A stretch of 62,494 nt of DNA, counting the filler, from Stramenopiles sp. TOSAG23-6 (taxonomy: Eukaryota): the NCBI GenBank assembly GCA_900128565.1. It is 14 parts of 14 records of this genome, joined end to end, with 100 filler letters (N's around TTAATTAATTAA, not from the genome) between each part and the next. Parts side by side here need not be neighbours in the genome. Positions count along the whole stretch, not along the records: positions 49,273 to 53,617 come from LT637188.1; 13 more parts are not named here. The stretch is one strand, 5' to 3'. Made by a program: the position numbers and the translations under genes. Below the pieces are notes generated by a model. That model did not search any database, was not told the origin of the DNA, and saw only the letters and a list, made by a program, of their open reading frames with translations. This document shows, one piece after another, positions 3,335-57,969 of this stretch. Positions within the stretch are counted from its first letter, which is position 1. The number at the start of each line of letters is the position of its first letter.

Positions 3335-4190
3335 TCATCTTCTTTTTATTATATGAGTTACTGAATTTTGATGTCTTAATTTTCGTGTATTTGCGAGTTT
3401 AACTCGTTCAAAATTCATTTCTTTTTGCTCTTTATTGGAACGTTCCTGCTCCTCCACTCTTTTAAAAAGCGTACTTTGTAAACTATACGGAGCACGAACA
3501 GGTCTGTCCTTTCCAGATAACAATCTTTGTCTTGCTTCACGAATGGCACGAATCCATATATTTTGAAAAAATATTTTTTTTTTTGGTAAAATTCGTTAGG
3601 TATGAAATTTTCGTACGAAATTTTCAAAAAAAAAAAAAAATTCGAAATTGAAAAAAAAATCCAGAGCAAAAAAAAAAAAATTTTTTTGTTAGGTATGAAA
3701 TTTCATAGTTAAAAAAAAATGTAGAATAAACATTGAAAAAAAAACCTACATCGTCTTTTTTCAGGTGCTGTTTTGCACACAACTGTAAATGTTTTACTTG
3801 GATGATCAATTTGGAACGCTTGCACAAACCTGTTAGAATTACGCCCTGATCGTTTTTCGTGTTGAATTTCTAAATTTTTAATGACTTTCACTCGAATATC
3901 AATTAAATTTAAAATTCGATGTACACGAAATCTTGATGAAAACCAACCTTTTTTTGCATAAAGTACAACATCACTAAATAAAAAAAAATTATATTTTTGG
4001 TACAAATTTTTTGTACTTATTTTCATTAAAACACCTTCTAATAAAAGTTGTCTATTTTTTTTTAAAATTTTTGCAGATTTTTTAAATTTTTTTTGTAATT
4101 CTTCAAGTTTGACTTTTTCATATTTTGTTTGAATTAATTCTTTTAAATTGGCCACTATTTGATGAACATGTAGTGCGAAGATATATATAT
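3335..4190 (-). CDS. C-terminal part of a DH-PH (RhoGEF, FGD-like) protein, 5' partial
   Basis: RQLLLEGVLMKIS...FFLFSDVVLYAK...AFQIDHPSKTFTVVCKTAPEKRR|WIRAIREA is a PH domain after a DH-like helix; exons ~4190-3750 and 3555-3335. Confidence 0.75.
3556..3749 (-). other. Intron, GT-AT, two branch boxes
   Basis: GTAGGTTT...CAAAATATAT; removal creates the invariant PH-domain Trp codon (t|gg). Confidence 0.85.
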
Positions 4191-13424: not shown

Positions 13425-13635
13425 NNNNNNNNNNNNNNNNNNNNNNNNNNNNNNNNNNNNNNNNNNNNTTAATTAATTAANNNNNNNNNNNNNNNNNNNN
13501 NNNNNNNNNNNNNNNNNNNNNNNNTATTTTGGAAAAATATTTCAAAAAAAATCTAAAAAAATTGTTAGGTACAAAATTTACTATAAAAAAATTTGAAAAA
13601 AAAAAAATTGAAATTTGAAAAAAAATAAAACATAT

Positions 13636-18004: not shown

Positions 18005-20076
18005 CCATGACAAGTAGCAAGCCAAATGTTGGAAACGAAACCCTATACGAAAACTATGCTATTGTGGCAGAGTTTTCTGATCAAGAACCAGATGAAGAAG
18101 GGGGGATGTACGTTTTCATTTCAATTTCGAATGTATTGTTTTTTTTTCGTACGAAATTTTGTACCTAACGAGTTTGTTTTTGAAATATTTTTTGACAAAA
18201 TATGGAACATGTTGTGTTTGATTCATTACCCTACTGTGCTGAATCACCAGACACATTAGAAATAGTAAAAGGTATTTTACAAAGTGACGTCATTGACGTA
18301 TCTGTTCGCGATGAGTATGGTAATACGATGCTTCAAGCTGCAGTAGCCGCTAATTGTTTTGATATTGTTCAACTACTTCTTTCCTCATGTGGAGCAACGG
18401 CATACGATTGTAACAATGTTGGAGCAACTCCATTGCACTTTGCTACGACTGTAGAAATGGTCAAAATACTTCTAAAACATGGCGCAGATGTACATGCTGT
18501 TGAGACGGAGTCTGGTTGCTCTTCTCTGCATTATGCAGCACAATATGATGACGTTGGTATTATAGATTTACTCGTCGCTAATGGTGCTGATGCAGGTCTT
18601 TTGGAGTATTATGGTTATACTCCTGCAGATTATGCTATAACGGCAAACAAACATGCCAATGCTGAAAGGCTTGAACAAATTTCGCTTGAATCTGAATTTT
18701 GTGCAATGCTTGATCGAGTAGGTATAAAAAAGGGGTGGCTGAAGGATGATATTGAAACAATCAAAGGATATTTTGATATCATTGAAATTAACAATTGTAA
18801 GAAACTCGAAGATGCAAAAGGGTGCATAAATGATATGCTTGGTGCAAAAGGAATTAGTCCTTTTGATGAAAGCACAATATCCTTGTTTCATCGTGAAATA
18901 ACTCTTTCCAAAACAAATCAAGCTGCAGCGAAAATATTACAGCAAAACCTCAATAGCAATATTGCAGACGATTGTGAATGGGTTGTTCAAATAGATAGTG
19001 AAACTGGTCAGCAGTATGAAATAAATACAAACACAGGGGAAAGTAGGTGGAAAACTTGGGACTTGCATGATGATAAAGCTGTATCTAGTGATATATGGCC
19101 TCACACTAATGAAGGTTCTCAATTGCAAGATCGCTATTCGAATGAGAAGGTAACTTTGGTAGCTAAAATGTCCATCGAAGAATCGTCTGAATTTGTAGAG
19201 AAAACCTTATCCAGTAATTCTATGAGTTATAATCCGCTTGGTAAACAAATTATGGATAGTAATTACGCGTGGCAAGCAGATCCTTTTGATCAATGTCTTA
19301 TAATATCAAATGAAACGACTGAAAATGATCTAATACGAATTCAAAAGGATGCTATAGAGCATGGTATCATTATGACCACACGATGTCTAGAACCTATGAT
19401 GAAAAATGTAAATTCAAAACCCTCTTATACTGATCAAACCGAAGAAAATTCAAATAAGCTTGTGGAATCTGAGCGACTGTGTCGTCAATTAAAACTTCAG
19501 TTAGAAAAAGAAAGAAAATCCAGAATTTCTGGGGCAGTATCGACAGAGGCTAAGGTAAAAAGAGATACTGAAAATGAACATCAACGTTTGACTGAGAGAA
19601 TGTCTGAAATGGAAACTGAAAATAGTAAGATTAAAATACAACTGCAGTTAGAAAAAGAAAAATTAGTTACAGTACATCAAGAGTGTGAGAATAAAAATAG
19701 CGAAATTTTGACTTTAACATCTCAAATACATACTGCAAATGCACATCTAGCACAGAAAATGAAAGATATGAAAATGAATGCTGAAAAAATTGCTGCAGAG
19801 CATGTGAAACGCATCACGGCTGAATCTAATCGAAAAGTAATGCAAGTAGAGGCTGATATGAAAGCTTTGACTGCTCGTTTTCTGAAAGAGCAATCCATGC
19901 GTCGAAAGTTTTATAATGAACTAGAAGATTTAAAAGGAAAGGTACGAGTATTCTGTCGAATGCGCCCTTTTGCAAAATATGAAAAAGAAAGAGGTTGTGA
20001 GTACGCAGTGCAAATAGTAGATCAATATTCATTGAAACTTAAAGTTCGGAAAGATTGGAAGACATTTGAATTTGAT
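18005..20076 (+). CDS. Ankyrin repeat + WW-like + coiled-coil + start of kinesin-14 motor
   Basis: Ankyrin repeats (GATPLHFA, GCSSLHYAA); WVVQIDSETGQQYEINTNTGESRW; RRKFYNELEDLKGKVRVFCRMRP...FEFD; GT-AT intron 18108-18203. Confidence 0.8.
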
Positions 20077-20170
20077 GTATGTTTTATTTTTTTTTTCAAT
20101 TTCGAATTTATTTTTCGTACGAAATTTTGTACCTAACGAATTTTTTTTTAAATATTTTTTCACAATACAT
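20077..20170 (+). other. Intron, GT-AT (possible chimeric junction)
   Basis: GTATGTTT...TTTCGTACGAAATTTTGTACCTAAC...CACAATACAT. Confidence 0.7.
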
Positions 20171-22280
20171 CGTAAGTTATTATTAAATATGCGCCGATAT
20201 ACTCCAAACATTTCAGCAAATACAAGTGGAAGTAAAAATAAGAATTATAGTTCATGCTGGGAATATATTATCACTCTTGTCCCACCACTATCTCAAGAGA
20301 CTGAAAGAAGTGATGACGAAAGCTTAATAAGTATTCCATCTAGTGTACTCGATATTATAAAAGATAACAGCCAATCTGACAAGATTCGTTTATATCACAT
20401 AAAACAAATATCTAATTCGTATGGTGGAAATTCAAAAGTCGGGGTAGTTTTAACCGAAATCGCAGCAGATAAAAACGTTTCTAACGTCCTTCGCTTTTAT
20501 ATACTGAAAATCATAGGAACTTCATTTCATAAACAAGCGCAATCAATGGCATTGCAGGTATGTTTCGATTTGCTTATTCCTTTAGTGGTACAATGTTTGA
20601 TGGTATGCGCAGATGCCATGCCTGAAATCGAAGCCATTCGAGCGTTGCTTGTAACTATGCATCCTAAATCAGGTATTCTTGAATTTCGTACTTTTATGAA
20701 AAATCTTGTACAATCAACACTGAAAACGGCACTACAAGCTCGCCCAAATAGTAGTAGCTGGCAATTTTCTCCCCTGCGTGGTGGTAGCCCTGTAAATGAA
20801 GGAAAAGCTTTAGAGATTGCCTTTGGAGTTGGTCCATTCTTTGCCACAAATGCCTTACGAGTTTGTGCTATAGCTGCTGAGGAATTTATTGAGGAGCAAA
20901 AGATGCCTCAAAATACTATAATAGAGTATGATAAATTGCTTGAACTGGCATCATTTTTTTCTCCGTTGATTATCTATGCTACCCGAGAAAAGCGTTCCTC
21001 TGTCTTATTTTCAGGGTCCTCAAATAGTATTACCTCAAATAATGCCACAAGTTCTGATACAGATGACGAATGGGAAGTTTTACAGTTAAAACAGATAAGA
21101 AAAGCAGCTGGAATTCAACAGTTACTACTTCGATTAATATTTACTCAATTTCAAAAAGCATGTCGGTCGAATGACCAAATATTTAGACGTCGAACTGCAT
21201 CATGTCTTCCATATATTTTGCAGCGTTGGGGCTGCTGGAAGGTACCCGGTAAGGTTAATATAAACACTGAAGATTCCCCATATCAACATATAGTTGTAGC
21301 GCGAAGCCCAGCAGAAGAAAAGGTTTTACTTTGGGCCTCAACTATGGCATTTATGGTTCTTAAAAAAACGTTACAAGTAAAATGGGTCGAAGGGAAACAC
21401 CAATTAAAAAATATGCTTCAATCTGTAATTATATCTGATTTCAAATCTTTGAAAGAAGTAGAAGAAATTGTAGGTCAGGAAAAGTTTCTTAAAGCTTATA
21501 AATTAGTAGAGGCTGGTGAAAAAGCATATTTGGCAGGTGTAAGTAAACATAGACGAAATATTCAGAAGAGTACTGTAGCTACATATAATGAATGGATTAC
21601 ATCGATGTCTTCTACTGGTCCAGATGTAAAGACAGATGCAAATTTTTCCATGGTGCAAAGTTGTGTTGAAGTAGCATCGGTGAATATACTGAAACATCGT
21701 AGTTGTGATAGTTGTCGTGTTAGATCTTTGATGAGACTTCTTTACAAACGTCCTGGTCTATGGTTCAAAATGTGCACTACTATTATTGATAATAATGCTG
21801 GGGAAGACGATGATAATATTATTGATAATAATGCTGGGGAAGACGATGATAATAGGTATGGTATGTACACTATTCATCCAAGTACTAGTAAGAAAATGAT
21901 TCGCTATCGTGTAATGCAAAATCCAGAATGCCAACTTCATACAGACCAAGCATATGCGACAAATGATATAGATAATAGTAATTTAACTTGTCTTCCTTTA
22001 ACAAGGTCAATAGAGAGAGCTACCCCTACTAATGATATTCTCAACCAGAAAAATGATAGCAATGAGACTGCAATGTCATCGTTTATGCCGGTTTCTGATG
22101 TTTTAGCTGGACTGCAAGAATTACAAGAATATGTACGTTTTATTTTTTTGAAATTCTAATTGATTTTTTTTATCGTATGAAATTTTGTACCTAACAAAGT
22201 TTTCGACAATTTTTTTTTTTTCACAATGTATAATCAATCAAATAGTGGCTTAGGTCTATTCAACAAACTTGAAGGTGCAT
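20171..22280 (+). CDS. Internal exons of a large helical protein, possibly BEACH-family (pre-PH region)
   Basis: Long open frame; MIRYRVMQNPECQLH resembles the segment preceding PH-BEACH; GT-AT intron 22133-22231; next donor at 22281. Confidence 0.45.
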
Positions 22281-22543
22281 GTACGTTTCATTTTTTTTTT
22301 CAAATTTTTTTTCGATTTTTTTTTTCGTACGAAATTTTGTACCTAACGATTTTTTTTTTTTTTTTTTTAAATATTTTTCCAAAANNNNNNNNNNNNNNNN
22401 NNNNNNNNNNNNNNNNNNNNNNNNNNNNTTAATTAATTAANNNNNNNNNNNNNNNNNNNNNNNNNNNNNNNNNNNNNNNNNNNNATACGAAATTTCGTAC
22501 CTAACGAATTTCAAACAAAAAGACATATTTTTCCACAATGTAG

Positions 22544-26790: not shown

Positions 26791-27291
26791 GTACGTTTCA
26801 TTTTTTTTTCAATTTCGAATTTTTTTTTCGTACGAAATTTTGTACCTAACGAAANNNNNNNNNNNNNNNNNNNNNNNNNNNNNNNNNNNNNNNNNNNNTT
26901 AATTAATTAANNNNNNNNNNNNNNNNNNNNNNNNNNNNNNNNNNNNNNNNNNNNCACAGCAATGAAATTTCTTCATTGGTTCATTACTTCCATATTTATA
27001 TCAATGTTGTTTTATTTTATAACCGCTCTCCACGAAATCTGTAAAAAAATCGAAATGTCGAAAATATTGTACTTGAAATAATCAAATCGAAATCAAATCG
27101 ATCAAAATTTTCTTTTCTTTTCACATTTACTATACACTTGACTAAAGTTTGACTTAGTTTAAAATTAAAAATCCAATTGATTGTTAAATATTGATTGTGA
27201 CTGAATGATATCATCATGCTTCCTATGATATATTTCCCAACTGATTGATATATAGAAGCATTTCTCTTTGATTAAGATTCCTTTAAAAACA

Positions 27292-29443
27292 ATGGAGGAT
27301 GGACATCGGAAAGGATTTGGAGGAAAAACGATTGGAAATATAGGTTCCTTTATTTATTTAGTGAACCAGATTTTCGGGCCTGGTGTCCTTGCTCTTCCTT
27401 ACGTTGTTATACAGAGTGGATTCATCCCATCGTTATTGATGAATGTATTCATGTGTATGGCTTCGGCGTTATCTTCAACAATGCTAATGGGTGCAATACG
27501 TGCAATTCCTCAAAATAGACATCTTCAACAAAGATTAGGATTTTTTAGTGCAATTCGTTTTTACTATGGTACAAAAGTCGCAACAGTGTTTCAATTTTTT
27601 CTTCATTTAACGTTACAATCGTTAAATATTGCTTCAATCATCGATGTGGCTTGTGCATTTGATAAGTTACTACTAAAACTAGTTGGTAAAACACCAGCAT
27701 TAGAAGTTTCACCTCACTTTCATTTTGGATTATTTGATCTTAATTGGGTGAGTTCAGTTTATGGCTCAGATCAATCTACAATAACATTTGCATTAACTTT
27801 AGGGTATTGTATTGTTGGTTTGTTATGTATACCAATGGGAATGTTTAATATTGATGATAACATCATTGTACAAATTGTCTCTTTTATATTTTTAGTCATT
27901 CTCATTGGTATTTTTGTACTTCAATGTATTATTGATGGATTTCGTGCAGATCATTTTGACAATAATGATGAAGATTTCGTATTTCCTTCTTTTTTTGGTT
28001 CAGAGTATCGAGGATTAATGGCAGTCTATATATTTTCATACAGTTATACAATGCTAATTCCTCCATGTAACTATATATTTTTTACATTTATTTGAATTTT
28101 TTTTTTTCAAAATGAATTTTTGTTTCGTACGAAATTTTGTACCTAACAAAATATTTGAAATTTTTGAAATATTTTTTTTATATTTCATGGGCAAATGAAG
28201 CGAAACGAAACGTTAATATTGGAAAACAAATTTGGTTATCTGCTTTAACATCATGCATTGGTTATTTGATTGTTGGTATGTAATTCAATAATATATTTTG
28301 AATTTGAATTTTTTTTGAATTTTTTTTTTGAATTTGAATTTTTTTTCATACCTAACAAAATTTTAACTTTGATTTGTTAGACTTTTACATGGACTCTACT
28401 CGCTTGTGCATATCCAAATATTACAACAGATAATGTTCTTCTCAGTATATTAAACAGTAAATATTCTAATTGTGTGTTTATATTTTAAATATCATTTTTT
28501 TTTTAAATACAAAANTNTATACCNAANAAAAAAAAANTCATTTTTTTTTNATATATTTTTCAAAAATATATTAATTACAAGAATTGCTGCATATGCATTT
28601 GCTGCCACAATTATATTACCAGGTATCCCTGTGTTTTGTATAACAACTCGGTATGATTTACAAATGAGTGGAATATGTTCGTATGTACGTTTTTTCGTAC
28701 TATTTTTTTATTTTTTTGAAATTTTATTTTTCGTACGAAATTTCATACCTAACAAAAAAAAATATTTTTTTTATGAAATATTTTTCAACATGTAGAGACA
28801 AAGTATTTTTTTTGGAAACATTGCTCCATGGTTAATTGCTTGGTGTTTATCATCTGCTACTGCTTTTTCATCCATGTTGGTATGGACAAGTTTGGTATGT
28901 GGATCTGTAGTGAATTACATTGTACCTTTATTTTTATACAGAACATCAATTTTAAAAGCCAAAGAAAACCCTAACCCTAGTACTATGAACCCTAACCCTA
29001 GTATAAATGATGATAGAATAAGTCCTAACCCTAGTTCAAATGATGATGAAGAAGAAGTAAAAGAACAACAACAAATTCGAAATTCATTAGGTATGAAATG
29101 TAGAATAAATTCAATTTCAAATTTATCTGTACTTGAGTCACCACTAATTGAAAACTTTTATAATCAATACAATGATGAAAGAAAAATGAATGAAATAAAT
29201 ACTATAGACATGAACCCTAACCCTAATCAACAATCCTCGTATAATGGCTTTTATAATGAAGAAGAAAATTTATTGAATATAGACATGAACCCTAACCCTA
29301 ATCAACAAAACCCTAACCTTAATCAACAATGGACTGTTTACCCTAAATGTGTTCAAAAATACGAAATGTATATAACAAATTGTATATTAGTGTTGATTCT
29401 GATTTCAGTCATTACTTGTATCACTATACAAATTTTTAAATAA
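27292..29443 (+). CDS. Amino-acid transporter (Aa_trans/AAAP family), five exons
   Basis: LVNQIFGPGVLALPYVVIQSGF and multiple TM segments; introns 28067-28188 (AT), 28276-28390 (AT), 28472-28571 (AT) and 28685-28795 (AG) give one open frame. Confidence 0.85.
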
Positions 29444-29808
29444 AGTTGAAATGAGTTGAAATGTCCAAAACAATTTCGAGAGTAAATGACAATCTATATT
29501 GAAGTTGAATACTATATATGATATATATGTATATATATGTATATAATAATAATACAATTAATTTGAATCATCTTTTTATTTTATTTCTTCACAAAACCAA
29601 ATAAATCACTTTTTTGTTGTTCAATTCAAAACACAAAAATACAAAATAATGACAAGCCCATTTGACTTGGACTAAATATTTTCATTGTACCATTTCTCAC
29701 CATGACTCCAAAATATTCTTGTGCATATCGATCAATGTAGACCAATCTACTTCACTTGTATATTCTTTTCGAAACAAACCAAATGTATTCTATACCTGAT
29801 TTTGTTAG

Positions 29809-30370
29809 TTAAACACTTTTACGATCTGTCATGACACGAAGTATAGAACCAACACCGACTTTTGTGTTTAATAATGAATGCCACCTAAATAGTGTTGAAG
29901 CGCGTTTTGGATCTTCTAAACCTTTGTAAATATATTTCATAAGTACATCATAGTATTCTGGTGAAAGTTTATTGATACATGACTTAATTTTATCGTCTCT
30001 ACATCCGTATAAAACTTTATAAACACATTCTGCGTTAGCTTCCTATAATGTAAATGAAAATGTCAAAGTGTCAAAAATGAAGGAATAAGTTCAAAAGTAT
30101 GTACAACTATACGATTCAAGTATATTATAAAAACACAGTATCAAAGGGTATAAACGGGATGTTGAATTCTGATGAGTGAAAATACTTGTAAAAGATGATA
30201 TGATGTTGTACTTTTGAAGAACTTACCTTGACTTCTTTGTTTTTACTACCCAATGGTGGGTTCTCCAAAGATTTAGAAAGAGCTTGCAAGAAATTATTTT
30301 GACTTAGTAAATCTTCCACTTCTGATTTTTTTATGCGAATGCTATCTAGAAAAGCAGCATCATTTGACAT
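29809..30370 (-). CDS. ARPC5: Arp2/3 complex subunit 5 (p16-Arc)
   Basis: ALSKSLENPPLGSKNKEVK|EAN...DVLMKYIYKGL...LFRWHSLL...GVGSILRVMTDRKSV; canonical intron 30043-30226 (GTAAGT...TAG). Confidence 0.92.
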
Positions 30371-30725
30371 TATTATACTCCTAACACTTCTTCTTATTGT
30401 TTACGATGCCTTGGCTATACTTAACACAATTTGTCACTTTGACTATTATTACTATCAGATTTTATTACGCAAGCAGAATGATGATGATTGAAATGAAGAA
30501 AATGGTTTTGGGAAAATTTTATGGGTCAGAAAAGGTACCAGGTAACGGTATCAAATTTCGAATTAATTCATCGATATTATTTTATTGATTTTTTTATCTA
30601 ATTTCTCAAATTTAATCAAATATGTGTTATTATTTTTGTTTGTATATGAAATGTTTCACCCTTTTATAAACAACAGGGAAACATTTTAGTACAATAATAA
30701 ACAGATAATAATAAGAAAAATAAAT

Positions 30726-31323
30726 TTAAAAATATTTTTCAAGCATTGCTTGTGCATACTTATTACTGGCATTAGCAGCTTTGGTATACCACTTTTTAGC
30801 TTCTTTTTTGTCTACAGCAACACCATGACCAAATTGATAGCAATAACCAAGATTATTTTGTCCACTGCTATGACCTGCATTAGCGGATTTAGTATACCAC
30901 TTGAAAGCTTCTTTTTTGTCTTCAGCAACACCAATACCATATTCATAACAATAACCAAGATTACTTTGTCCACCACTATTACCTGCATTAGCGGATTTAG
31001 TATACCACTTGAAAGCTTCTTTTTTGTCTTGAGCAACACCACGACCATGTTGATAGCAATAACCAATATAATTTTGTGAAATACTATCATCACTATTATC
31101 CATAAACATCTTAAATGCTTTTTCCTCATCCTTTTTATAACCATTCCAACCACTAAGTGTACAAAATGCAATAGCTGTTGGAAAACCAGCAATAGCCACA
31201 GATTCAATCATTAGTCGTCCATTCTCTTTATCAATAGTCTGAAAGTCATTACCATAAAACTTCGCATAACCAAGTTCAAATAAATTCTGTGCACCTTTAT
31301 TTTCTATCTTTTGACGTTTTACT
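30726..31323 (-). CDS. Sel1-like repeat protein, 5' partial
   Basis: Three 36-aa repeats QxNLGYCYxxGxGVAxDKKEAFKWYTKSANAG. Confidence 0.9.
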
Positions 31324-31760
31324 NNNNNNNNNNNNNNNNNNNNNNNNNNNNNNNNNNNNNNNNNNNNTTAATTAATTAANNNNNNNNNNNNNNNNNNNNN
31401 NNNNNNNNNNNNNNNNNNNNNNNCACAGCAATGAAATTTCTTCATTGGTTCATTACTTCCATATTTATATCAATGTTGTTTTATTTTATAACCGCTCTCC
31501 ACGAAATCTGTAAAAAAATCGAAATGTCGAAAATATTGTACTTGAAATAATCAAATCGAAATCAAATCGATCAAAATTTTCTTTTCTTTTCACATTTACT
31601 ATACACTTGACTAAAGTTTGACTTAGTTTAAAATTAAAAATCCAATTGATTGTTAAATATTGATTGTGACTGAATGATATCATCATGCTTCCTATGATAT
31701 ATTTCCCAACTGATTGATATATAGAAGCATTTCTCTTTGATTAAGATTCCTTTAAAAACA

Positions 31761-33912
31761 ATGGAGGATGGACATCGGAAAGGATTTGGAGGAAAAACGA
31801 TTGGAAATATAGGTTCCTTTATTTATTTAGTGAACCAGATTTTCGGGCCTGGTGTCCTTGCTCTTCCTTACGTTGTTATACAGAGTGGATTCATCCCATC
31901 GTTATTGATGAATGTATTCATGTGTATGGCTTCGGCGTTATCTTCAACAATGCTAATGGGTGCAATACGTGCAATTCCTCAAAATAGACATCTTCAACAA
32001 AGATTAGGATTTTTTAGTGCAATTCGTTTTTACTATGGTACAAAAGTCGCAACAGTGTTTCAATTTTTTCTTCATTTAACGTTACAATCGTTAAATATTG
32101 CTTCAATCATCGATGTGGCTTGTGCATTTGATAAGTTACTACTAAAACTAGTTGGTAAAACACCAGCATTAGAAGTTTCACCTCACTTTCATTTTGGATT
32201 ATTTGATCTTAATTGGGTGAGTTCAGTTTATGGCTCAGATCAATCTACAATAACATTTGCATTAACTTTAGGGTATTGTATTGTTGGTTTGTTATGTATA
32301 CCAATGGGAATGTTTAATATTGATGATAACATCATTGTACAAATTGTCTCTTTTATATTTTTAGTCATTCTCATTGGTATTTTTGTACTTCAATGTATTA
32401 TTGATGGATTTCGTGCAGATCATTTTGACAATAATGATGAAGATTTCGTATTTCCTTCTTTTTTTGGTTCAGAGTATCGAGGATTAATGGCAGTCTATAT
32501 ATTTTCATACAGTTATACAATGCTAATTCCTCCATGTAACTATATATTTTTTACATTTATTTGAATTTTTTTTTTTCAAAATGAATTTTTGTTTCGTACG
32601 AAATTTTGTACCTAACAAAATATTTGAAATTTTTGAAATATTTTTTTTATATTTCATGGGCAAATGAAGCGAAACGAAACGTTAATATTGGAAAACAAAT
32701 TTGGTTATCTGCTTTAACATCATGCATTGGTTATTTGATTGTTGGTATGTAATTCAATAATATATTTTGAATTTGAATTTTTTTTGAATTTTTTTTTTGA
32801 ATTTGAATTTTTTTTCATACCTAACAAAATTTTAACTTTGATTTGTTAGACTTTTACATGGACTCTACTCGCTTGTGCATATCCAAATATTACAACAGAT
32901 AATGTTCTTCTCAGTATATTAAACAGTAAATATTCTAATTGTGTGTTTATATTTTAAATATCATTTTTTTTTTAAATACAAAANTNTATACCNAANAAAA
33001 AAAAANTCATTTTTTTTTNATATATTTTTCAAAAATATATTAATTACAAGAATTGCTGCATATGCATTTGCTGCCACAATTATATTACCAGGTATCCCTG
33101 TGTTTTGTATAACAACTCGGTATGATTTACAAATGAGTGGAATATGTTCGTATGTACGTTTTTTCGTACTATTTTTTTATTTTTTTGAAATTTTATTTTT
33201 CGTACGAAATTTCATACCTAACAAAAAAAAATATTTTTTTTATGAAATATTTTTCAACATGTAGAGACAAAGTATTTTTTTTGGAAACATTGCTCCATGG
33301 TTAATTGCTTGGTGTTTATCATCTGCTACTGCTTTTTCATCCATGTTGGTATGGACAAGTTTGGTATGTGGATCTGTAGTGAATTACATTGTACCTTTAT
33401 TTTTATACAGAACATCAATTTTAAAAGCCAAAGAAAACCCTAACCCTAGTACTATGAACCCTAACCCTAGTATAAATGATGATAGAATAAGTCCTAACCC
33501 TAGTTCAAATGATGATGAAGAAGAAGTAAAAGAACAACAACAAATTCGAAATTCATTAGGTATGAAATGTAGAATAAATTCAATTTCAAATTTATCTGTA
33601 CTTGAGTCACCACTAATTGAAAACTTTTATAATCAATACAATGATGAAAGAAAAATGAATGAAATAAATACTATAGACATGAACCCTAACCCTAATCAAC
33701 AATCCTCGTATAATGGCTTTTATAATGAAGAAGAAAATTTATTGAATATAGACATGAACCCTAACCCTAATCAACAAAACCCTAACCTTAATCAACAATG
33801 GACTGTTTACCCTAAATGTGTTCAAAAATACGAAATGTATATAACAAATTGTATATTAGTGTTGATTCTGATTTCAGTCATTACTTGTATCACTATACAA
33901 ATTTTTAAATAA
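31761..33912 (+). CDS. Amino-acid transporter (duplicate copy)
   Basis: Identical to 27292-29443. Confidence 0.8.
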
Positions 33913-34277
33913 AGTTGAAATGAGTTGAAATGTCCAAAACAATTTCGAGAGTAAATGACAATCTATATTGAAGTTGAATACTATATATGATATATATGTA
34001 TATATATGTATATAATAATAATACAATTAATTTGAATCATCTTTTTATTTTATTTCTTCACAAAACCAAATAAATCACTTTTTTGTTGTTCAATTCAAAA
34101 CACAAAAATACAAAATAATGACAAGCCCATTTGACTTGGACTAAATATTTTCATTGTACCATTTCTCACCATGACTCCAAAATATTCTTGTGCATATCGA
34201 TCAATGTAGACCAATCTACTTCACTTGTATATTCTTTTCGAAACAAACCAAATGTATTCTATACCTGATTTTGTTAG

Positions 34278-34839
34278 TTAAACACTTTTACGATCTGTCA
34301 TGACACGAAGTATAGAACCAACACCGACTTTTGTGTTTAATAATGAATGCCACCTAAATAGTGTTGAAGCGCGTTTTGGATCTTCTAAACCTTTGTAAAT
34401 ATATTTCATAAGTACATCATAGTATTCTGGTGAAAGTTTATTGATACATGACTTAATTTTATCGTCTCTACATCCGTATAAAACTTTATAAACACATTCT
34501 GCGTTAGCTTCCTATAATGTAAATGAAAATGTCAAAGTGTCAAAAATGAAGGAATAAGTTCAAAAGTATGTACAACTATACGATTCAAGTATATTATAAA
34601 AACACAGTATCAAAGGGTATAAACGGGATGTTGAATTCTGATGAGTGAAAATACTTGTAAAAGATGATATGATGTTGTACTTTTGAAGAACTTACCTTGA
34701 CTTCTTTGTTTTTACTACCCAATGGTGGGTTCTCCAAAGATTTAGAAAGAGCTTGCAAGAAATTATTTTGACTTAGTAAATCTTCCACTTCTGATTTTTT
34801 TATGCGAATGCTATCTAGAAAAGCAGCATCATTTGACAT
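34278..34839 (-). CDS. ARPC5: Arp2/3 complex subunit 5 (duplicate copy)
   Basis: Identical to 29809-30370. Confidence 0.88.
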
Positions 34840-35194
34840 TATTATACTCCTAACACTTCTTCTTATTGTTTACGATGCCTTGGCTATACTTAACACAATT
34901 TGTCACTTTGACTATTATTACTATCAGATTTTATTACGCAAGCAGAATGATGATGATTGAAATGAAGAAAATGGTTTTGGGAAAATTTTATGGGTCAGAA
35001 AAGGTACCAGGTAACGGTATCAAATTTCGAATTAATTCATCGATATTATTTTATTGATTTTTTTATCTAATTTCTCAAATTTAATCAAATATGTGTTATT
35101 ATTTTTGTTTGTATATGAAATGTTTCACCCTTTTATAAACAACAGGGAAACATTTTAGTACAATAATAAACAGATAATAATAAGAAAAATAAAT

Positions 35195-35792
35195 TTAAAA
35201 ATATTTTTCAAGCATTGCTTGTGCATACTTATTACTGGCATTAGCAGCTTTGGTATACCACTTTTTAGCTTCTTTTTTGTCTACAGCAACACCATGACCA
35301 AATTGATAGCAATAACCAAGATTATTTTGTCCACTGCTATGACCTGCATTAGCGGATTTAGTATACCACTTGAAAGCTTCTTTTTTGTCTTCAGCAACAC
35401 CAATACCATATTCATAACAATAACCAAGATTACTTTGTCCACCACTATTACCTGCATTAGCGGATTTAGTATACCACTTGAAAGCTTCTTTTTTGTCTTG
35501 AGCAACACCACGACCATGTTGATAGCAATAACCAATATAATTTTGTGAAATACTATCATCACTATTATCCATAAACATCTTAAATGCTTTTTCCTCATCC
35601 TTTTTATAACCATTCCAACCACTAAGTGTACAAAATGCAATAGCTGTTGGAAAACCAGCAATAGCCACAGATTCAATCATTAGTCGTCCATTCTCTTTAT
35701 CAATAGTCTGAAAGTCATTACCATAAAACTTCGCATAACCAAGTTCAAATAAATTCTGTGCACCTTTATTTTCTATCTTTTGACGTTTTACT
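35195..35792 (-). CDS. Sel1-like repeat protein (duplicate copy)
   Basis: Identical to 30726-31323. Confidence 0.85.
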
Positions 35793-43271: not shown

Positions 43272-44724
43272 ATGACATCCCACATGTCAAAGGCTGTAAG
43301 ATCAGCTACTGACTCAGAAATATTCGATCTTGGTGGTTATAACGAAGATACTATACACTTGCTAGTTGATCAGTGTTTCAAAGAGCCTTTTCCAATCTCT
43401 ACAATGATCAAAATAAGTTTCATTGTAGGCGCTGGAAAAGCTACACGCGGTAGATACAATAGTTCATTACCAAAGTATATGCGTGCAGCTCTCCAGAAAG
43501 TCGGATTTTCTGAAGATCAAGGAGCATGCTGTATGGATACCAGTGCAGGTTTGTTCAAATATCAACATGATACTGGAAAGAACCAAATTTTTATCCATGT
43601 ATTCCCACTTCTGAAAGTTGCGGATGGGTCGTTTCCACCAGTACCTCCTCAAGCTGAAGAAATAAAGGATCCTCTAACAATGTGTTGTGAATGTAGTTTT
43701 TCTACTTTTAAGAAAATAGTGGAGAAACAAACTCCTTCGGTTACAACTAAACGTCGTCTACATGCATGTTTTATTTATTTTTTTGTTTTCGAAAAAAAAA
43801 AATCGATTTTTTTTTCGTACGAAATTTTGTACCTAACAATTTTTTTTTTTTGGTAAAAAAATTTTGAAATATTTTTCCAAAATACATGCTGCTTTAAAAG
43901 ACGCCAAGAAAGAATTTACTTCTATTGAAAAGAAGTTAATGAATGGTGAGACACTTTCAATCAAAGAATCAGAGAAATATTCTAATTTTGAAGACATAGA
44001 AGATAAAATAGAGTATGTACGTTTTCAAAATTGGATTTTTTTTGAATTTTTTTTTTTTGAAAATTTTGTACCTAACAATTTTTTTTTTTTTTGGTAAAAA
44101 AAAAATTTTGAAATATTTTTCCAAAATAAATGTTCATTCTCTGCAAATCGCTCAAGTAAAGCGTGGTGAAATTACTGCGGAAGAAAAAAATATATTGAGG
44201 TCCAATCTTTTTTCAAAGATAAAAACTTTAGAGATGGAAATAAAAAAATGTGAAGAAAATGCATCAGAAAATGTAAGCAAACCAAATCTAGCTGCAAAAT
44301 ATAACAAACATGTAGAAAAGTTACAGAAAGACAGAACGTTTTATTTATTTTTTTGTTTTTTTTGTTTTCGAAAAAAAAAAAATCGAATTTATTTTTCATA
44401 CGAAATTTTGTACCTAACGAATTTTTTTTTATAGAAAATTTTGAAATATTTTTCCAAAATAGGCAACAAACTGAATATTCGTATGAATTCTCTCAAAGAT
44501 AAACCAACAAAAGACGTTTTGACAATTTTCCCTTTAAAAAATAAAGAAGAATTTGAGTCAATTTGGCTTCAGGCTGATCGAATAAAATCATGTACGTTTT
44601 ATTTTTTTTTTTTTTTCGAAAAAAAAAAAAAAATCGAATTTTTTTTTCATACGAAATTTTGTACCTAAAAAATTTTTTTTTTTTTTTTTTTTGAAATATT
44701 TTTCCAAAATACATATCTATTTTC
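43272..44724 (+). CDS. Uncharacterised protein with four motif-class introns, 3' partial
   Basis: Introns 43764-43887 (GC-AT), 44017-44131 (GT-AT), 44334-44462 (GA-AG) and 44592-44714 (GT-AT); the first three joins give a continuous frame. Confidence 0.75.
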
Positions 44725-49172: not shown

Positions 49173-49394
49173 NNNNNNNNNNNNNNNNNNNNNNNNNNNN
49201 NNNNNNNNNNNNNNNNTTAATTAATTAANNNNNNNNNNNNNNNNNNNNNNNNNNNNNNNNNNNNNNNNNNNNTATGTTTTATTTATTTTTTAAATTTTGA
49301 AATTGAATTTTTTTTTTTTTGAAAATTTTGTACGAAATGTTGTACCTAACAAATTGAAATTTTTTTTTTCTGAAAATATTTTTACAAAATACAT

Positions 49395-52300
49395 CGATCT
49401 CCATTGTGTTATGCTTGTCAAAGAGGAAATGAAGATATCGTACGTTTTTTGTTATCACAGGGAGCTAATATTCATCATTGTGATGATACATTACAAATGC
49501 CTCTAGGGTATTCAACATCTTTGAATATTATATCTTATTTACTGTCTAACTTGTTTGAAAAGAACAAATTCGAAAAAAACAAATTGGAAAAAAACAAGTT
49601 TGAAACCAATGAAAACAACAAGTTTGAAACCAATGAAACAAACGGTATATCAATTCGTCCAATTCAAAATAATCCAACACAAAATCATATTGATAATCCT
49701 ATTTTGTTAAATAATACTGAAAAACAACAATTAAAGAAATATTTGAATCATTTAAATCAAGATAATAAATCAGCTTTAACATTTGCTTGTCAAAATGGAA
49801 ATCTAAAAGTAATTAAATATTTATTAGAAAAAGGTCTTGATGCTACAATTCTTGATACAAACAAAAAAACATTGTTGATGCATGTTCCACAATGTCAAAA
49901 TCAAATTCAAATTTTTCAATGCTTATTTGAAGCAGGTATGTTTTTTTTTTTTTTTTACAGAAAAATCGAATTTATATTTTTTTTTTTATAAAAAATTTGT
50001 ACCTAACGGGTTTTTTTTTGAAATATTTTTCCAAAACACAGGCACAAATGTAAATGCGAGAGATAGCACAGGTAAAACTATAATGCATTATGTAGCTGCA
50101 CAGACCAATGGAGCAAACCTGATGAAGTTAATAACCTCTTCATTTGAAACAATGATGTCCGTTTTCAATTTCGAATTTCAAATTTCAAATTTATTTTTTT
50201 TTATTTTTTTTTTTTGGTTTTTCAAATTTATTTTTTTTTATTTTTTTTTTTTTGGTTTTTGGTTTTTGGTTTTCATACGAAATTTCGTACCTAACATTTT
50301 TTTTTTATAGAAAATTTTAAAATATTCTTTCATAATATATTGATGCTATTGATGAAACCAAGCGAACACCTTTAAGTTATGTATCTAATTCAGATAGTGC
50401 ATCTCATTTGCTTCAAATAGGATCAAATGTAGATATTGAAGATATTCAAAAAAGAACGGTGTTAAGTTATATATGTGAAGCAGCAAGAGACCCTAACCCT
50501 AACCATAACCAAAATTATAAGAGAATATTACAATTATTATTTTCTTGTGGTGCTGATTTCTCAGGAGGTCATGCTAAACGCAATGCAATAACATTTGCAT
50601 CAAAACCTAATATATTAAAACAATTTGTGAAATCTGGTGCAAATGTTTTTTCCACTGATTCGCATGGGCGAAATATTTTGCATTATTTTGCTTGGAAATG
50701 TTCTCAAAACCCTAATTCTTGTTGTAATGAATTGACGACAAGTTGGAATTCTGAGGATAAAAAATGGGTTTTGAACCCTAACCCTAATCCTAGTTCAACT
50801 ATAAAAAGTCATACATTGATACAATCTACATCTTCAGACTTTTCTAATGATATTGAAATTGCTAAAGTACTCCAAGTGAACATGGAAAAAGCAAAGGCAA
50901 TTCATATAACTGCAGAATCCGTCCGAGCAAATGCTGCGGTTCATTGTGTGCTCCAACAGACGTATAGAATAGCAAAAGCAGAAGAAAAACGATTTCAAAA
51001 ATATGCTGATATTAAAGTTACACTTGAATTGGCTGCAAGGCAACGATGGAACAAAGCACAATATGGAATACCTGCAGAAACTCTTGTCACAATAAATAAT
51101 GAATTATTAAAGTCTAAAATAAATGAAACTGCTGCAAGAGTACAGTATAATTTAATGGCTGCAGGAAAACATGATGCAACAGCATTGACAAAGTTATCCA
51201 AACATGTATAATTTCATCATGAATTTATTAATTTATTTTTTTATACGAAATTTCGTACCTAACTATTTTTTTTTTTGTAATTTTTTTTTTTTTTTTTTTT
51301 TACCAAATTTTGGACCCAAACTTTTTTTTTTTTTTTTTTAAACATGTCGCATCTATGGTCGATACATACCAACAGACTGTGCGTAGATGTACGTTTTCAA
51401 TTTTGATTTTTTTTTTAAACTTTTGAAATTTTTTTTTGTATGAAATTTTGTACCTAACCAAAAAAAAACCCAAAAAAAAAACTAAAAAAAAAATTTTTTT
51501 TTTTTCAAAATATTGTTCAAAAATGTATGGTTTGTTGCTCATGGCATTTTATCCGATGACAAGGTGAAACAATTAGGTAGACAACTTTCTGAACAGAAAG
51601 ATGTTTTACAGTCTCAAGAAAGATCTTTACAATCATATTTGGATAAATTGCAAATTGCAATGGAAAAGAAAGCAACAATACAAAAAATACAAAAACAATC
51701 TAAATCAAAATATTCAAAATATTCAAAATATTCAAATTCAGATAAAACAGACAGTTTTTTGAAAGACGAAAAAAACATTGAAAACAATGAAAACAATGAA
51801 AAAGAAATCAAACAACTTGAAGATAAAAAGAGAGAAGTATCTAATGAAGTCGAGGTATGTTTTTGTTTCAATCTTTTTTTTTTTTCAATCTTTTTTCGAT
51901 TTCAAATTTGCTTCATTTTTACATAGTAAATTTTGTACCTAACAATTTAAAAAAAAAAAAAAAAATGAAAAAAATATTGTTTTGTAATATAGGTAGCACG
52001 CCAAATAGTACACAAATTACAAGAAACATATACAAAAGCATTAAATGCAAAAAACCTTTCAAATGCTTATATAAAGATAAGAGATAATAAAGTTGCCCAA
52101 GAAAAAATATATAAACAATTACAAAATGTGTTGGGTGTAATACCTACAGAAGAAAAGAAACAATTGAAAACAAAATGGATGTATGTTTTAATTTTTTTTT
52201 TTGAGACTTAAAAAAAAATCGATTTTTTTTTTATAAAAATTTTGTACCTAACAATTTTTTTTTGAAAATATTTTCCAAAAATATATGAATATTCAATTTG

Positions 52301-53546
52301 TACTTGCTGAAGCGATGCATTCCGTTGTGAAATCAAAAGCCAAAACTAAACAAGCGTATATAAAAATGAAAAATGCATGGAAACAATGTCAAGATGCACA
52401 TATTGAATATGGAATGGCTTGTTTGTTTTATATATTTTTTTATATATTTTTATATATTTTTATATTTTTTATATATTTTTTTATATTTTTTTTTTTTTTT
52501 CATAGTAAATTTCATACCTAACAAAAAAAAAATAAAATATATTTTTCACAAAACATGTTTGACAAAAGAATCTCGTGATAATCTACTTAAATATCGTACC
52601 ATGAAAGAATTTGAATCAGATTCAAATCCAGGAAAATATTTTGGCATTTTAGGAACATTACAAACAAGTTTTGGGCTTGGTATTGATGTGAATAGTGTAG
52701 ATAGAAAAGGTCGTTCAATATTGCATTACATTATTGGCGTGTACAACCCTAACCCTAACACTACTATACACACAAAAAACAAAAAAAACAAAAAAAACAA
52801 AAAAAACAAAAAAAACAAAATACAAAATTCAAATTCAAACATACATATAAATATTGTAGATTCAGGTATATTACACGTTATACAAAAGCAACAGAGATTG
52901 GCTTTACAATTAGCCTTATCCATGGGAGCAAATATTGACATTTGTGATTGTGAAGGACGTTCGACGTTAAGCTATGCATGTATCTTTTAATTTTTTTTTT
53001 AAATTTTTTGTCTACATTTTTTCATAGTAAATTTTATACCTAACAATTTTTTTTTTTACTAACCAAAAAAAAAAAAATTTTGAAATATTTTTCCAAAATA
53101 CATGTGAATATGAAAATCATCAAGCCATTGAACTTCTTTTGTTTGCTGGAGCAAATGTACATTGTACAGATAATTCAAATAGAGATCCAATTACGTAGGT
53201 TTTTTTTTTTTTTTTGTAAAACTTGTTAGGTACAAAATTTCGTACGAAACCAAAAAAAAAAAATATATTTTTTTTTTTAATTTTTTTTCTTACATTTTTT
53301 TTTATAGTAAATTTCATACCTAACAATTTTTTTTTATAGTAAATTTTTAAATATTTTTTCACAATATATATATGCTTGTAGTTTAAAAAGTCTTTTACTT
53401 TTATTAGACGCCGATGCATCGCCAAATAGTAAAATCAATGCAGAAAATGTAACTATATTAATGGAAGCATCTAAGAATGGTTCAGTTTTAATTGCCAAAG
53501 CTCTGTTAGCAAAGGGTGGTTCAATTTTGGTACGAGATGTTGATAT
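49395..53546 (+). CDS. Large ankyrin-repeat/coiled-coil protein, partial, ten exons
   Basis: Introns 49936-50041 (AG), 50157-50340 (AT), 51206-51345 (AT), 51389-51528 (AT), 51855-51992 (AG), 52181-52286 (AT), 52421-52556 (AT), 52980-53103 (AT) and 53195-53369 (AT) give a continuous frame with intact ankyrin repeats. Confidence 0.85.
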
Positions 53547-53564
53547 GTTTGTTTTTTTCATCCA

Positions 53565-53617
<53 letters not shown>

Positions 53618-56363: not shown

Positions 56364-57969
56364 TATTATCATTATTATTATCATCACTAGTATCATCATC
56401 ATTATTATCATCATTATTATCATCATCAGTATTATCATCATCATTATAACAATAATCACGAAAAACACTTTGTAATCCAATATAATCAAATTGTCCAGAT
56501 TTCGTGACATCATGAATAATACCTAATAAATCGTTTTTTTGTACTTCATAAGATCGTAATCGAGATCGTGATTCAAGTATTGTGAAAAAATATTTCAACA
56601 AAAATTTTAGAAAAAATTGTTAGGTACGAAATTTTTTTACGAAATTTTTTTACGAAAAAAAAAAAAAATTAAATTAGAAATTCATATAAAATTAAATTAG
56701 AAATTCATATAAAACGTACAACCATTGCGATACGTTTTGTTGAACGGTCAAACTCTTTCTGTATTTCGTGTACTTTTTGAACATGTGTAAATATATAATC
56801 ATCTCGGGCTGCTAGCATGTACTGTGAAAAACAATATTTCATTTTTTGATTTTATTTTGTTTTTGTTAGGTACAAAATTTCGTATGAAAAAAAATTTCAC
56901 AAAAAAAAAAAAAATGTTGAAATTTTTGATTTTGTTTTTTTGTTTTCTATGAAAATTTCGTATGAAAAATCAAAAAAAAATATATCGAAAACATACATTT
57001 CCGGAGGAAGAAAAAAATTACCTGCTAATACAGGAATTGCAATTTTTTTCTTATCAATTAAAAAATTAACACAATCTTGTAACTCAAGGCACCATGAATG
57101 TGATGATTGATAATTTGGTGCAGCTAGAAAAAAAGTTTTAGGCCCAGTACGGGATGGGATACCTAATAAAAATATATTTTGTAAAGAATATTTTTTTTTT
57201 CATATTTTTTTGTTAGGTACAAAATTTACTATGAAAAAAAAACTGTAAAAAAAAAAATGTAATTTTTTTTTTTTTTTTTTTTTTACATTTGTTAGGTACA
57301 AAATTTACTATGAAAAAAAAATTTATGAAAAAAAAAAAAAAAAAAAAAATTCATGAAATGACACAGACGCATTTTCAACACTTCCAAATCCCATAGAAAT
57401 GCATTCTTCGGACGTTTTAGGATCCGATACCCATGTTTCACTAGTAAAATCAATAAATCCTCTAGGAGTCAATTTTTCTTCAATCGCACGTTTTTTATAT
57501 ACAGTGATTNGNTCAGTTNTTTTTTTTNGANTTTTTTTTTGAATTTTTTTTCAAAATTTTTTTTGAATTTTTTTTCAAAATTTTTTTTGAATTGTTTTTC
57601 AAATTATTTTTTGAATTATACAGTGAATCTTCATGTGTAATTGTCGTATCCATTGTAGTATTCCATGGTAACTCTGTCTCTTGATAATAATATAAACGAA
57701 ATGCTAGAGGTCGTACAGAATCGGGATAAATTGTAAAGAAATATATTTTTTTTAGTTTTTTAGTTTTTTAGTTTTTTAGTTTTATAGTTAGGTACAAAAT
57801 TTACTATGAAAAAAAAAAAAAAAAATTTGAAATAACAAACATGATATTGTTTCCATTGTAAAGTAGTATTATTTAATCGGACAATTATCGGTGGATATTG
57901 GAGAGGTGCAAATCGGAAGTTACGCCATTTCCATCTTCGTAGAATATCTGAACGTTTTAATAAATTTCC
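54523..57969 (-). CDS. PH domain plus probable VPS9 (Rab5 GEF) domain protein, partial, Asn/Thr/Asp-rich inserts
   Basis: GNLLKRSDILRRWKWRNF...LYYY...PRGFIDF...ENAF...TFFLAA...W (PH); YTDAIAALQNFAASYVPSDM (VPS9-like). Introns 57726-57840, 57174-57368, 56817-56996, 55409-55532 and 54937-55073 (AT) and 56575-56719 (TT); 57500-57620 unresolved because of Ns. Confidence 0.7.

Follow-up and report, generated by a model that had tools for sequence, protein, structure and literature searches.

An ankyrin-repeat gene of Stramenopiles sp. TOSAG23-6 with nine intron-like interruptions that end mostly in AT

Structure of the ankyrin-repeat gene

The DNA analyzed was a window of 62,494 nucleotides (nt) from the genome assembly of Stramenopiles sp. 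TOSAG23-6 (GCA_900128565.1), and the subject of this work was a split ankyrin-repeat gene located at positions 49273–53617 (LT637188.1). The window is made of contigs of ~4.4 kb in falling order of length, joined by N44-TTAATTAATTAA-N44 linkers, so adjacent contigs need not adjoin in the genome. The ankyrin gene occupies exactly one contig, bounded by two of those linkers, and it is incomplete at both ends because the contig starts and ends inside introns.

A first-pass annotation had described in this gene nine consecutive GT-starting interruptions, seven of them GT-AT and two GT-AG, and this was borne out on the contig (Table 1). Their removal joined ten exons in a single open frame of 967 codons, free of stops, and the four ankyrin junctions quoted in that annotation (EAG/TNVNARD, MI/DAIDETKRTPL, SYAC/EYENH and DPIT/YAC; here and below a slash marks a junction) were present as given. 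It is well supported that these segments, referred to as introns, are precisely removable at GT...AT or GT...AG.

Table 1. Features of the ankyrin-repeat gene and of the transporter gene used as a control locus (positions in the window)
Feature	Position	Strand	Length (nt)	Ends	Phase	Remarks
Partial intron 0	49273–49394	+				3′ part only; box TGTACCTAAC at 49341–49350; tail ends ACAT
Exon 0	49395–49935	+	541			Ankyrin repeats; residues 1–31 = Pfam Ank model positions 3–33
Intron 1	49936–50041	+	106	GT-AG	1	Splits Gly codon in ...FEAG/TNVNARD
Exon 1	50042–50156	+	115
Intron 2	50157–50340	+	184	GT-AT	2	Unused TAG between branch-like box and 3′ end
Exon 2	50341–51205	+	865			Ankyrin repeats, then coiled-coil-like; two in-frame (AACCCT)2 stretches
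Intron 3	51206–51345	+	140	GT-AT	0	Without AAATATT box
Exon 3	51346–51388	+	43			Required for frame
Intron 4	51389–51528	+	140	GT-AT	1
Exon 4	51529–51854	+	326
Intron 5	51855–51992	+	138	GT-AG	0
Exon 5	51993–52180	+	188
Intron 6	52181–52286	+	106	GT-AT	2	No AG-only alternative with the same donor
Exon 6	52287–52420	+	134
Intron 7	52421–52556	+	136	GT-AT	1
Exon 7	52557–52979	+	423			Ends ...EGRSTLSYA, first third of an ankyrin repeat
Intron 8	52980–53103	+	124	GT-AT	1
Exon 8	53104–53194	+	91			Residues 2–23 = Pfam Ank model positions 12–33, complementing the end of exon 7
Intron 9	53195–53369	+	175	GT-AT	2	Inverted partial box copy at 53225–53234 (minus strand); unused TAG
Exon 9	53370–53546	+	177			Ankyrin repeats
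Partial intron 10	53547–53617	+				5′ part only: starts GTTTGT; GTTTGTTTT, then T-run to contig end
Transporter gene (Aa_trans family)	27292–29443	+				Separate contig; control locus
Transporter intron 1	28067–28188	+		GT-AT
Transporter intron 2	28276–28390	+		GT-AT		AG 10 nt upstream of 3′ end unused
Transporter intron 3	28472–28571	+		GT-AT
Transporter intron 4	28685–28795	+		GT-AG

Ankyrin repeats were detected by Pfam in exons 0, 2, 7, 8 and 9. Exon 0 scored 63.4 bits with Ank_2 (cut-off 27.3) and 54.3 bits with Ank (cut-off 21.1), and exon 9 scored 22.8 bits with Ank (cut-off 21.1). With Ank and Ank_2 above their gathering scores, the product belongs with the ankyrin-repeat proteins; it shares their repeats but differs from them in that its central part is a long coiled-coil-like region. 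Among proteins of 505–2000 residues, none was found to be a full-length relative.

Placement of the intron boundaries

Direct repeats of 0–8 nt at the intron ends leave most of the cut sites shift-ambiguous, and GT...A[T/G] was the only reading that fitted all nine introns. AT-AC boundaries were possible for introns 3 and 8 only, TA...TA boundaries like those of ciliates fitted, among the introns checked by eye, only intron 9, and ending intron 9 at 53371, 2 nt beyond 53369, broke the frame. The least certain boundary of the nine is that of intron 3, which was placed by the frame, the ACAT/G consensus and an 8-nt direct repeat.

The AT- and AG-ending introns carry the same internal boxes, in agreement with the first-pass annotation: GTAYGTTTT, TGTACCTAAC and a tail of 21–22 nt ending in AYAT. 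A GTAYGTTTT-like start was present in every complete intron of the gene, and the tail (G)AAATATTTTTYCAMAATAYAT in most of them. The sequence TRYACCTAAC occurred 36 times in the window versus 0.24 expected, i.e. more than by chance. From the shared boxes, it is reasonable to interpret that one machinery may handle the introns with either ending.

The 3′ ends were also placed by two rules blind to the reading frame. The first one, which set the end at the 21st base from an exact AAATATT box, gave seven of the nine ends exactly, introns 3 and 7 having no exact box. The second one, a semi-global alignment of the tail consensus, also gave seven exact ends, while it missed intron 3 and made intron 5 two bases too long. 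Each rule thus put seven ends on boundaries that keep the frame open and, in combination, they placed eight of nine exactly. In an automatic test of phase across the window, a first caller, degraded by short exons and mis-picked boxes, gave 14/26 cases in phase; a refined caller gave 12 of 16 clear cases, its four misses being a doubled element, an AG intron with a poor tail, a possible GA-AG intron and intron 5 (called 2 nt too long).

Gene models with AG ends only

Alternative GT-AG or GC-AG introns that keep the frame were found for every intron, from 4 to 28 each. At the AT introns, these AG-only alternatives add or delete at least 4 residues. The spliced forms were scored with an ankyrin-repeat hidden Markov model (HMM) built from 41 unrelated ankyrin proteins, using the seed model and its first iteration; the second iteration, which had shrunk to 29 columns, was set aside. 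The reference splice form scored 53.4 bits (seed) and 78.9 bits (first iteration).

This comparison had been proposed in the first-pass annotation as a check, and its outcome was mixed: AG-only forms scored lower throughout at introns 8 and 1, and not in all cases at introns 2 and 9. None of the 21 AG-only forms of intron 8 reached the reference, the best being at -2.3 and -4.7 bits from it with the two models, and neither did any of the 26 other AG choices for intron 1, itself an AG intron. For intron 2 and the introns of the coiled-coil region, the differences were smaller than 1 bit. The ankyrin HMM test was thus informative at introns 1 and 8 only, and decisive at intron 8 alone. Pfam agrees at this point, with the Ank model positions given for exon 8 in Table 1, and we take EGRSTLSYA, at the end of exon 7, together with the Cys codon split by the intron, to be approximately positions 1–10 of the Ank consensus, as counted by hand. 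No further model coordinates came from running Pfam on the short ends of exons. The junction at intron 8 is the one best supported by the ankyrin repeat.

Homology check in a transporter gene

The ankyrin locus had been considered the best single test of the GT-AT introns. We judged the transporter gene of the Aa_trans family (Table 1) a better one, by virtue of its colinearity with nine homologues. A search with its first exon against 1.84 billion representatives gave 762 relatives at E ≤0.001, the closest one being P0001 (53% identity, E = 1.3e-77). The 567-residue spliced product was colinear with the nine homologues, without model-specific gaps at any junction, and the Trp that most of them have in the motif PSW.NE was rebuilt from T/GG across a junction. 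In BLASTP alignments, the product was 54% identical to P0001 over 341 residues and 46% identical to P0006, a protein whose source name is that of a complete open reading frame (ORF) from a transcript assembly; residues 245–410, which span all four junctions, were aligned free of gaps. In the DNA around a metagenomic relative, P0002, tblastn confirmed no relative. When transporter intron 2 was ended at the AG 10 nt upstream, the next exon was mis-framed with respect to the homologues. The conservation of this product confirms the GT-AT rule outside the ankyrin gene; homology confirms all four junctions, three of them with AT ends.

These data bear on whether anything is removed at all. The interruptions are repeats of the sort at which assemblies break, and in the contig 18005–22384 a kinesin-like domain breaks off at an intron that is followed by an exon without Pfam matches, as might occur in a pseudogene with repeat insertions or in a chimeric assembly joined through repeats. 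Such an explanation is scarcely credible given that nine of nine joins in the ankyrin gene are in phase, with no stop in the joined frame, that ankyrin model positions complement each other across intron 8, and that the same rule rebuilds a conserved transporter exactly.

Splice signals in 29 curated introns

A curated set was made with the 29 introns of the window whose flanking frames were in phase (one has an N just downstream). Twenty-one were GT-AT, one GC-AT, five GT-AG and two GT-TT, so the 3′ dinucleotide was AT in 22, AG in 5 and TT in 2. The family thus includes GT-TT and GC-AT members, which were absent from the first-pass annotation. The lengths ranged 94–194 nt (median 122). Position counts gave AT/GTAYGTTTT at the 5′ end and TTTYCAMAATAYAT/G at the 3′ end. 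The +1 G was invariant (29/29) and the +2 T was present in 28; the donor was GTAYGT-like, with GTATGT nine times and GTACGT six times. CTAAC, the putative branch sequence, was found in 28 introns, followed by T-runs, and the branch-like box ended 25–61 nt before the 3′ end (median 44). Compared to canonical U2-type introns, these have the expected donor and a YTRAY branch-like sequence, and not the AG 3′ end.

Between the box and the 3′ end, ten of the 29 introns contain an unused AG, and all but intron 3 of the ankyrin gene contain unused AT dinucleotides. The skipping of both indicates that the dinucleotide alone does not set the 3′ site, which seems to be defined by its position at the end of the tail rather than by the dinucleotide. 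A branch point inside the tail (TTCCAAAA) was discarded, as it would lie ~6 nt from the 3′ end, too close to it. Eight of the 29 introns were folded, none of them with a significant structure (z between -1.62 and +0.57), and only in two of the eight did the intron ends pair in the minimum-energy fold.

Concerning the type of spliceosome, a minor (U12-type) or otherwise specialised one was considered, with Physarum polycephalum as a precedent. According to a preprint, U12-type introns were gained en masse in this organism, many of them with inverted repeats flanked by a TA direct repeat; non-canonical ends occur in 0.8% of introns, and GT-AT makes up 17% of 1,014 non-canonical U12-type introns. 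The likeness to the present family would be a class gained in mass, with transposon-like ends and with tolerance of varied, non-AG 3′ ends, GT-AT included. Moreover, two of the 29 donors match the U12-type [AG]TATC[CT]T, both as GTATCTT, the Physarum "+6T" form. On the other hand, the Physarum signals, [AG]TATC[CT]TT and a TTTGA branch at 10–12 nt from the 3′ end, were searched for and are absent here (donor 2/29; TTTGA at -10 to -12, 0/29), the U12-type branch TCCTTRAC was found in none of the 29 within 45 nt of the 3′ end with up to one mismatch, none starts with AT, and the CTAAC box lies at the distances given above. AT ends, 22/29 here, also contrast with the 0.8% of non-canonical ends in Physarum. 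A minor spliceosome seems therefore rather improbable.

A side observation concerns an element at ~44350–44464 (+), apparently a family member that starts with GAACGTTTT rather than GTACGTTTT and ends in AG. By eye, GA-AG boundaries keep its flanking frames; it may have a GA donor, be a dead intron or reflect a base error.

Exon-end copy and repeat family

The last two nt of the upstream exon equal the last two nt of the intron in 21 of the 29 cases, versus 14.3 expected (permutation P = 0.00015). Both TT introns come after exons ending in TT (Fisher P = 0.025) and both exons ending in AG precede introns ending in AG (Fisher P = 0.025); AT is the exon end (-2/-1) in 18/29. The conserved element ends in ...AATAY, and the next two bases appear to behave like a second copy of an insertion target. 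Since a G follows the intron in 18/29, a 3-bp target (NNG) supplying the donor G is equally possible. In the MLH3-like gene, a GT-TT intron at 15904–16030 (-) presents a separate case, in which the upstream exon ends with ~14 nt (TTCCAAAATATTTG) identical to the intron tail. This copy far exceeds the usual one of 2 nt.

To judge from their sequences, the introns are one high-copy repeat family, a point absent from the first-pass annotation. Twenty-seven introns from nine contigs aligned over their full length, also in stretches to which no role in splicing is attributed; sub-families with extra shared segments (TTGGTAAAAAA) were visible, and a (C)GTAnnAAATTT stretch before the box was also conserved. 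As in introners, many similar introns were thus found in unrelated genes. The longer introns hold doubled or inverted copies, which suggests that copies of the element were inserted into, or next to, one another. The introns at 3556–3749 (-), 53195–53369 (+), 56817–56996 (-) and 57172–57364 (-) have either two branch-like boxes or a partial copy in inverted orientation.

Thousands of DNA contigs from this organism contain the intron boxes. The 4.3-kb stretch of the ankyrin gene was matched by 3,775 of 119,919 contigs in one DNA set (X1) and by 3,310 of 99,615 in another (X2); depth per bin peaked over the intron-bearing bins, single-copy exon pieces being at ~5–20. In three DNA runs, at least 15 contig joints link repeated intron parts only. 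In the window, nine boxes lie within ~120 nt of a contig end, and many contigs begin or end inside family introns (e.g. at 13525, 22384, 26854, 35893, 49273, 53617, 58056 and 62494), so the family limits the contiguity of the assembly. Metagenome contigs contained 0 matches to the 20-nt intron box, and a single one, isolated in a metagenome-assembled genome of Bacteroidales, was taken as chance.

An explanation that dispenses with a transposon would be that these are real GT-AT spliceosomal introns whose shared boxes are unusually long and tightly constrained splicing signals, the exon-end match being due to site recognition or to a proto-splice-site preference. The conserved parts do coincide with the places of splicing signals (donor, branch box, T-tract and 3′ tail). 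Besides, the inverted repeat is only weakly developed, neither a transposase nor an empty site was observed, and the exon-end AT is frequent regardless of the intron end. Nevertheless, the similarity extends past signal positions, to the (C)GTAnnAAATTT stretch and the TTGGTAAAAAA segments of the sub-families; longer introns contain composite, inverted and doubled copies; the boxes are common to thousands of contigs and stand near contig ends; and the pairing of TT after TT and AG after AG goes beyond permutation. All in all, this explanation seems unlikely, although it retains some weight. Regarding transposase, none was found by a Pfam scan of 14 of the 48 long ORFs (≥130 residues).

Removal at the RNA or the DNA level

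Excision from DNA, either as internal eliminated sequences of the ciliate kind or as precise transposon excision, would also account for precise removal, and the short direct repeats at both ends (0–8 nt) resemble pointers or target duplications. The eliminated sequences of ciliates are absent from bulk DNA, whereas here DNA contigs span the exon-intron borders: contigs with an exon plus an intron flank had a depth of ~10, like other exon pieces, and X1/X2 contigs carry the junctions at exon depth (e.g. 50280–51241 at 11.8). In addition, standard-code frames of up to 961 codons make a ciliate-type code unlikely, and the TA...TA reading failed outside intron 9 in the inspection by eye mentioned above.

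The orientation of the elements was also considered. All 29 curated frame-interrupting elements are in sense orientation, which was a condition of their curation; in a separate scan of boxes based on ORFs, 21 of 24 were sense and two antisense, one of the latter being a curated sense intron and the other having no further intron features. The exon-depth borders in DNA, the sense orientation and the strand-specific signals, i.e. the invariant G at +1, GTAYGT and CTAAC, are features that favour removal from RNA, and make excision from DNA very improbable.

Proposed explanation

Probability leans slightly towards the reading that the nine interruptions are real introns of one ankyrin/coiled-coil gene, spliceosomal in a U2-like manner, and members of an introner-like repeat family. 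The layout of the family would be AT/GTAYGTTTT, a T-run, (C)GTAnnAAATTTTGTACCTAAC, a T- or A-run, (G)AAATATTTTTYCAMAATAY plus two bases, and then /G. Both the 5′ end and the branch-like CTAAC box have a canonical appearance, and the 3′ cut would occur at a fixed place, two bases beyond the conserved tail, whichever these bases are (AT in ~3/4 of the introns, AG or TT in the rest). The family would have spread as a small transposon (introner) that duplicates a target of 2–3 base pairs, usually AT(G), and splicing from the GT of the element to the end of the second target copy would restore the original coding sequence. In its general form, the proposal is that the organism has a principal class of AT-ending introns (~3/4), made by a transposon, in thousands of copies, with the target duplication supplying their last bases, and a U2-like spliceosome that chooses the 3′ site by the tail position (21–22 nt). 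We regard this as an evenly balanced proposition.

Several points weigh against this explanation. No RNA run of this organism was found on record, and the removal from RNA, the branch point and the exact cut are putative. A non-AG 3′ end is disfavoured at the second splicing step in the major spliceosomes studied. In the HMM test, two of the 15 AG-only forms of intron 9 scored 1.4–2.0 bits above the reference, and 19–23 of the 28 AG-only forms of intron 2 scored no lower than it. As Logan DNA contigs stop inside every intron of the ankyrin gene, the exon order has no second source. Concerning the duplication, the AT preference at exon ends could be a splice-site consensus, and it is chiefly four AG-AG and TT-TT matches that raise the count above permutation. 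Neither an empty site nor an autonomous transposon was observed, and the duplication reading is based on the 29 introns that we curated. The terminal inverted repeat is weak (GTAT/ATAC plus a T-run versus an A-run), with an ungapped terminal 9-mer identity of 4.3 versus 3.2 in internal controls.

Comparison with known intron systems

Introners of Micromonas, Aureococcus, Symbiodinium and Polarella are, like the family studied here, many near-identical, short, non-autonomous introns in unrelated genes. In the introner-like elements of dinoflagellates, the 5′ splice site comes from a target duplication of 4–8 nt, GT, GC and GA being tolerated (10.1101/2020.10.14.339549). Introners keep a constant 3′ AG and a variable 5′ end (GHNN duplication), whereas here it is the 3′ dinucleotide that varies, along with the putatively duplicated bases, and the 5′ GT that is constant. 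A class of AT-ending introns made by a transposon would be, by analogy, the mirror at the 3′ end of the flexibility of dinoflagellate introners at the 5′ end. There are other differences from introners: the duplication here would be only 2–3 bp, with weak inverted repeats, and empty sites were not observed.

In Amoebophrya, more than 60% of the introns are non-canonical, with direct and inverted repeats and no fixed dinucleotides, and the non-canonical introns of diplonemids pair their ends. The likeness of Amoebophrya, euglenids and some diplonemids to the present case lies in the many non-GT-AG introns, the direct repeats at the boundaries and a proposed transposon-like origin. Their introns have no fixed termini and show pairing of the ends, whereas those described here have GT (GC once) and the CTAAC box, and gave no significant structure in the eight folds. 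The non-canonical boundaries of tunicate introns are reportedly AG-AC and AG-AT; these differ from the boundaries found here, and we know of no such shared internal boxes in those introns. The tunicates Fritillaria and Oikopleura likewise show a genome-wide departure from GT/AG, with an altered major spliceosome (PMC13326754; 10.1101/2025.08.15.670264). None of the systems compared combines a fixed GT, the CTAAC box, a conserved tail and a mostly-AT 3′ end that tracks the exon end, and no report of a mostly GT-AT genome was found in the full-text literature searched, outside subscription journals.

Few features of spliceosomal introns are as constant as the terminal AG. If the proposed explanation is true, these introns would offer a natural experiment on the way in which the site of the second catalytic step is located, and could reveal which proteins or small nuclear RNAs must change for non-AG 3′ ends; a target duplication that supplies the intron 3′ end would also extend the introner model of intron gain. 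In practical terms, gene finders that require AG would mis-annotate nearly every multi-exon gene of this organism, and assemblies break, or may be mis-joined, at the intron repeats.

Other observations in the window

The G+C content of the window averages ~30%. The Pfam content of its ORFs comprises an MLH3-like ATPase, a kinesin-like microtubule-binding domain with ankyrin repeats, a mitochondrial carrier, cNMP-binding domains, CRAL/TRIO, WH1-PBD and CCDC53, which together with the long standard-code reading frames indicates that the source is a eukaryote. A protein search with the MLH3-like exon gave vertebrate Mlh3 as top matches, at 32–36% only, so no close relative of the organism is present in the protein databases that were searched. 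Rfam gave 0 matches at gathering thresholds in the 62-kb window.

The contigs 26955–31323 and 31424–35792 look identical: their ORFs coincide, as does their pattern of single N letters, at an offset of 4469 nt. This duplicated locus was counted once. The frame at 18196–22159 (+) contains ankyrin repeats and the first 66 positions of the kinesin microtubule-binding domain, which ends at the intron 20077–20170; downstream of this intron, an in-phase exon of 707 codons has no Pfam match. Either the protein is an unusual one or the frame is a chimeric join via the repeated intron.

Telomere-like (AACCCT)2 stretches were found at 21 sites of the window (1526–52758) with at most one mismatch, versus 0.02 expected, for example at 50489–50508, 50774–50787, 52745–52758, 28967–29322, 8186–8199 and 16139–16152. 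Five of the 21 sites fall in the duplicated contig. Several, on checking, are in frame within exons, on either strand, and read NPNPN or GLGLG; the stretches may be the footprint of a repair process or a second insertion element of very small size.

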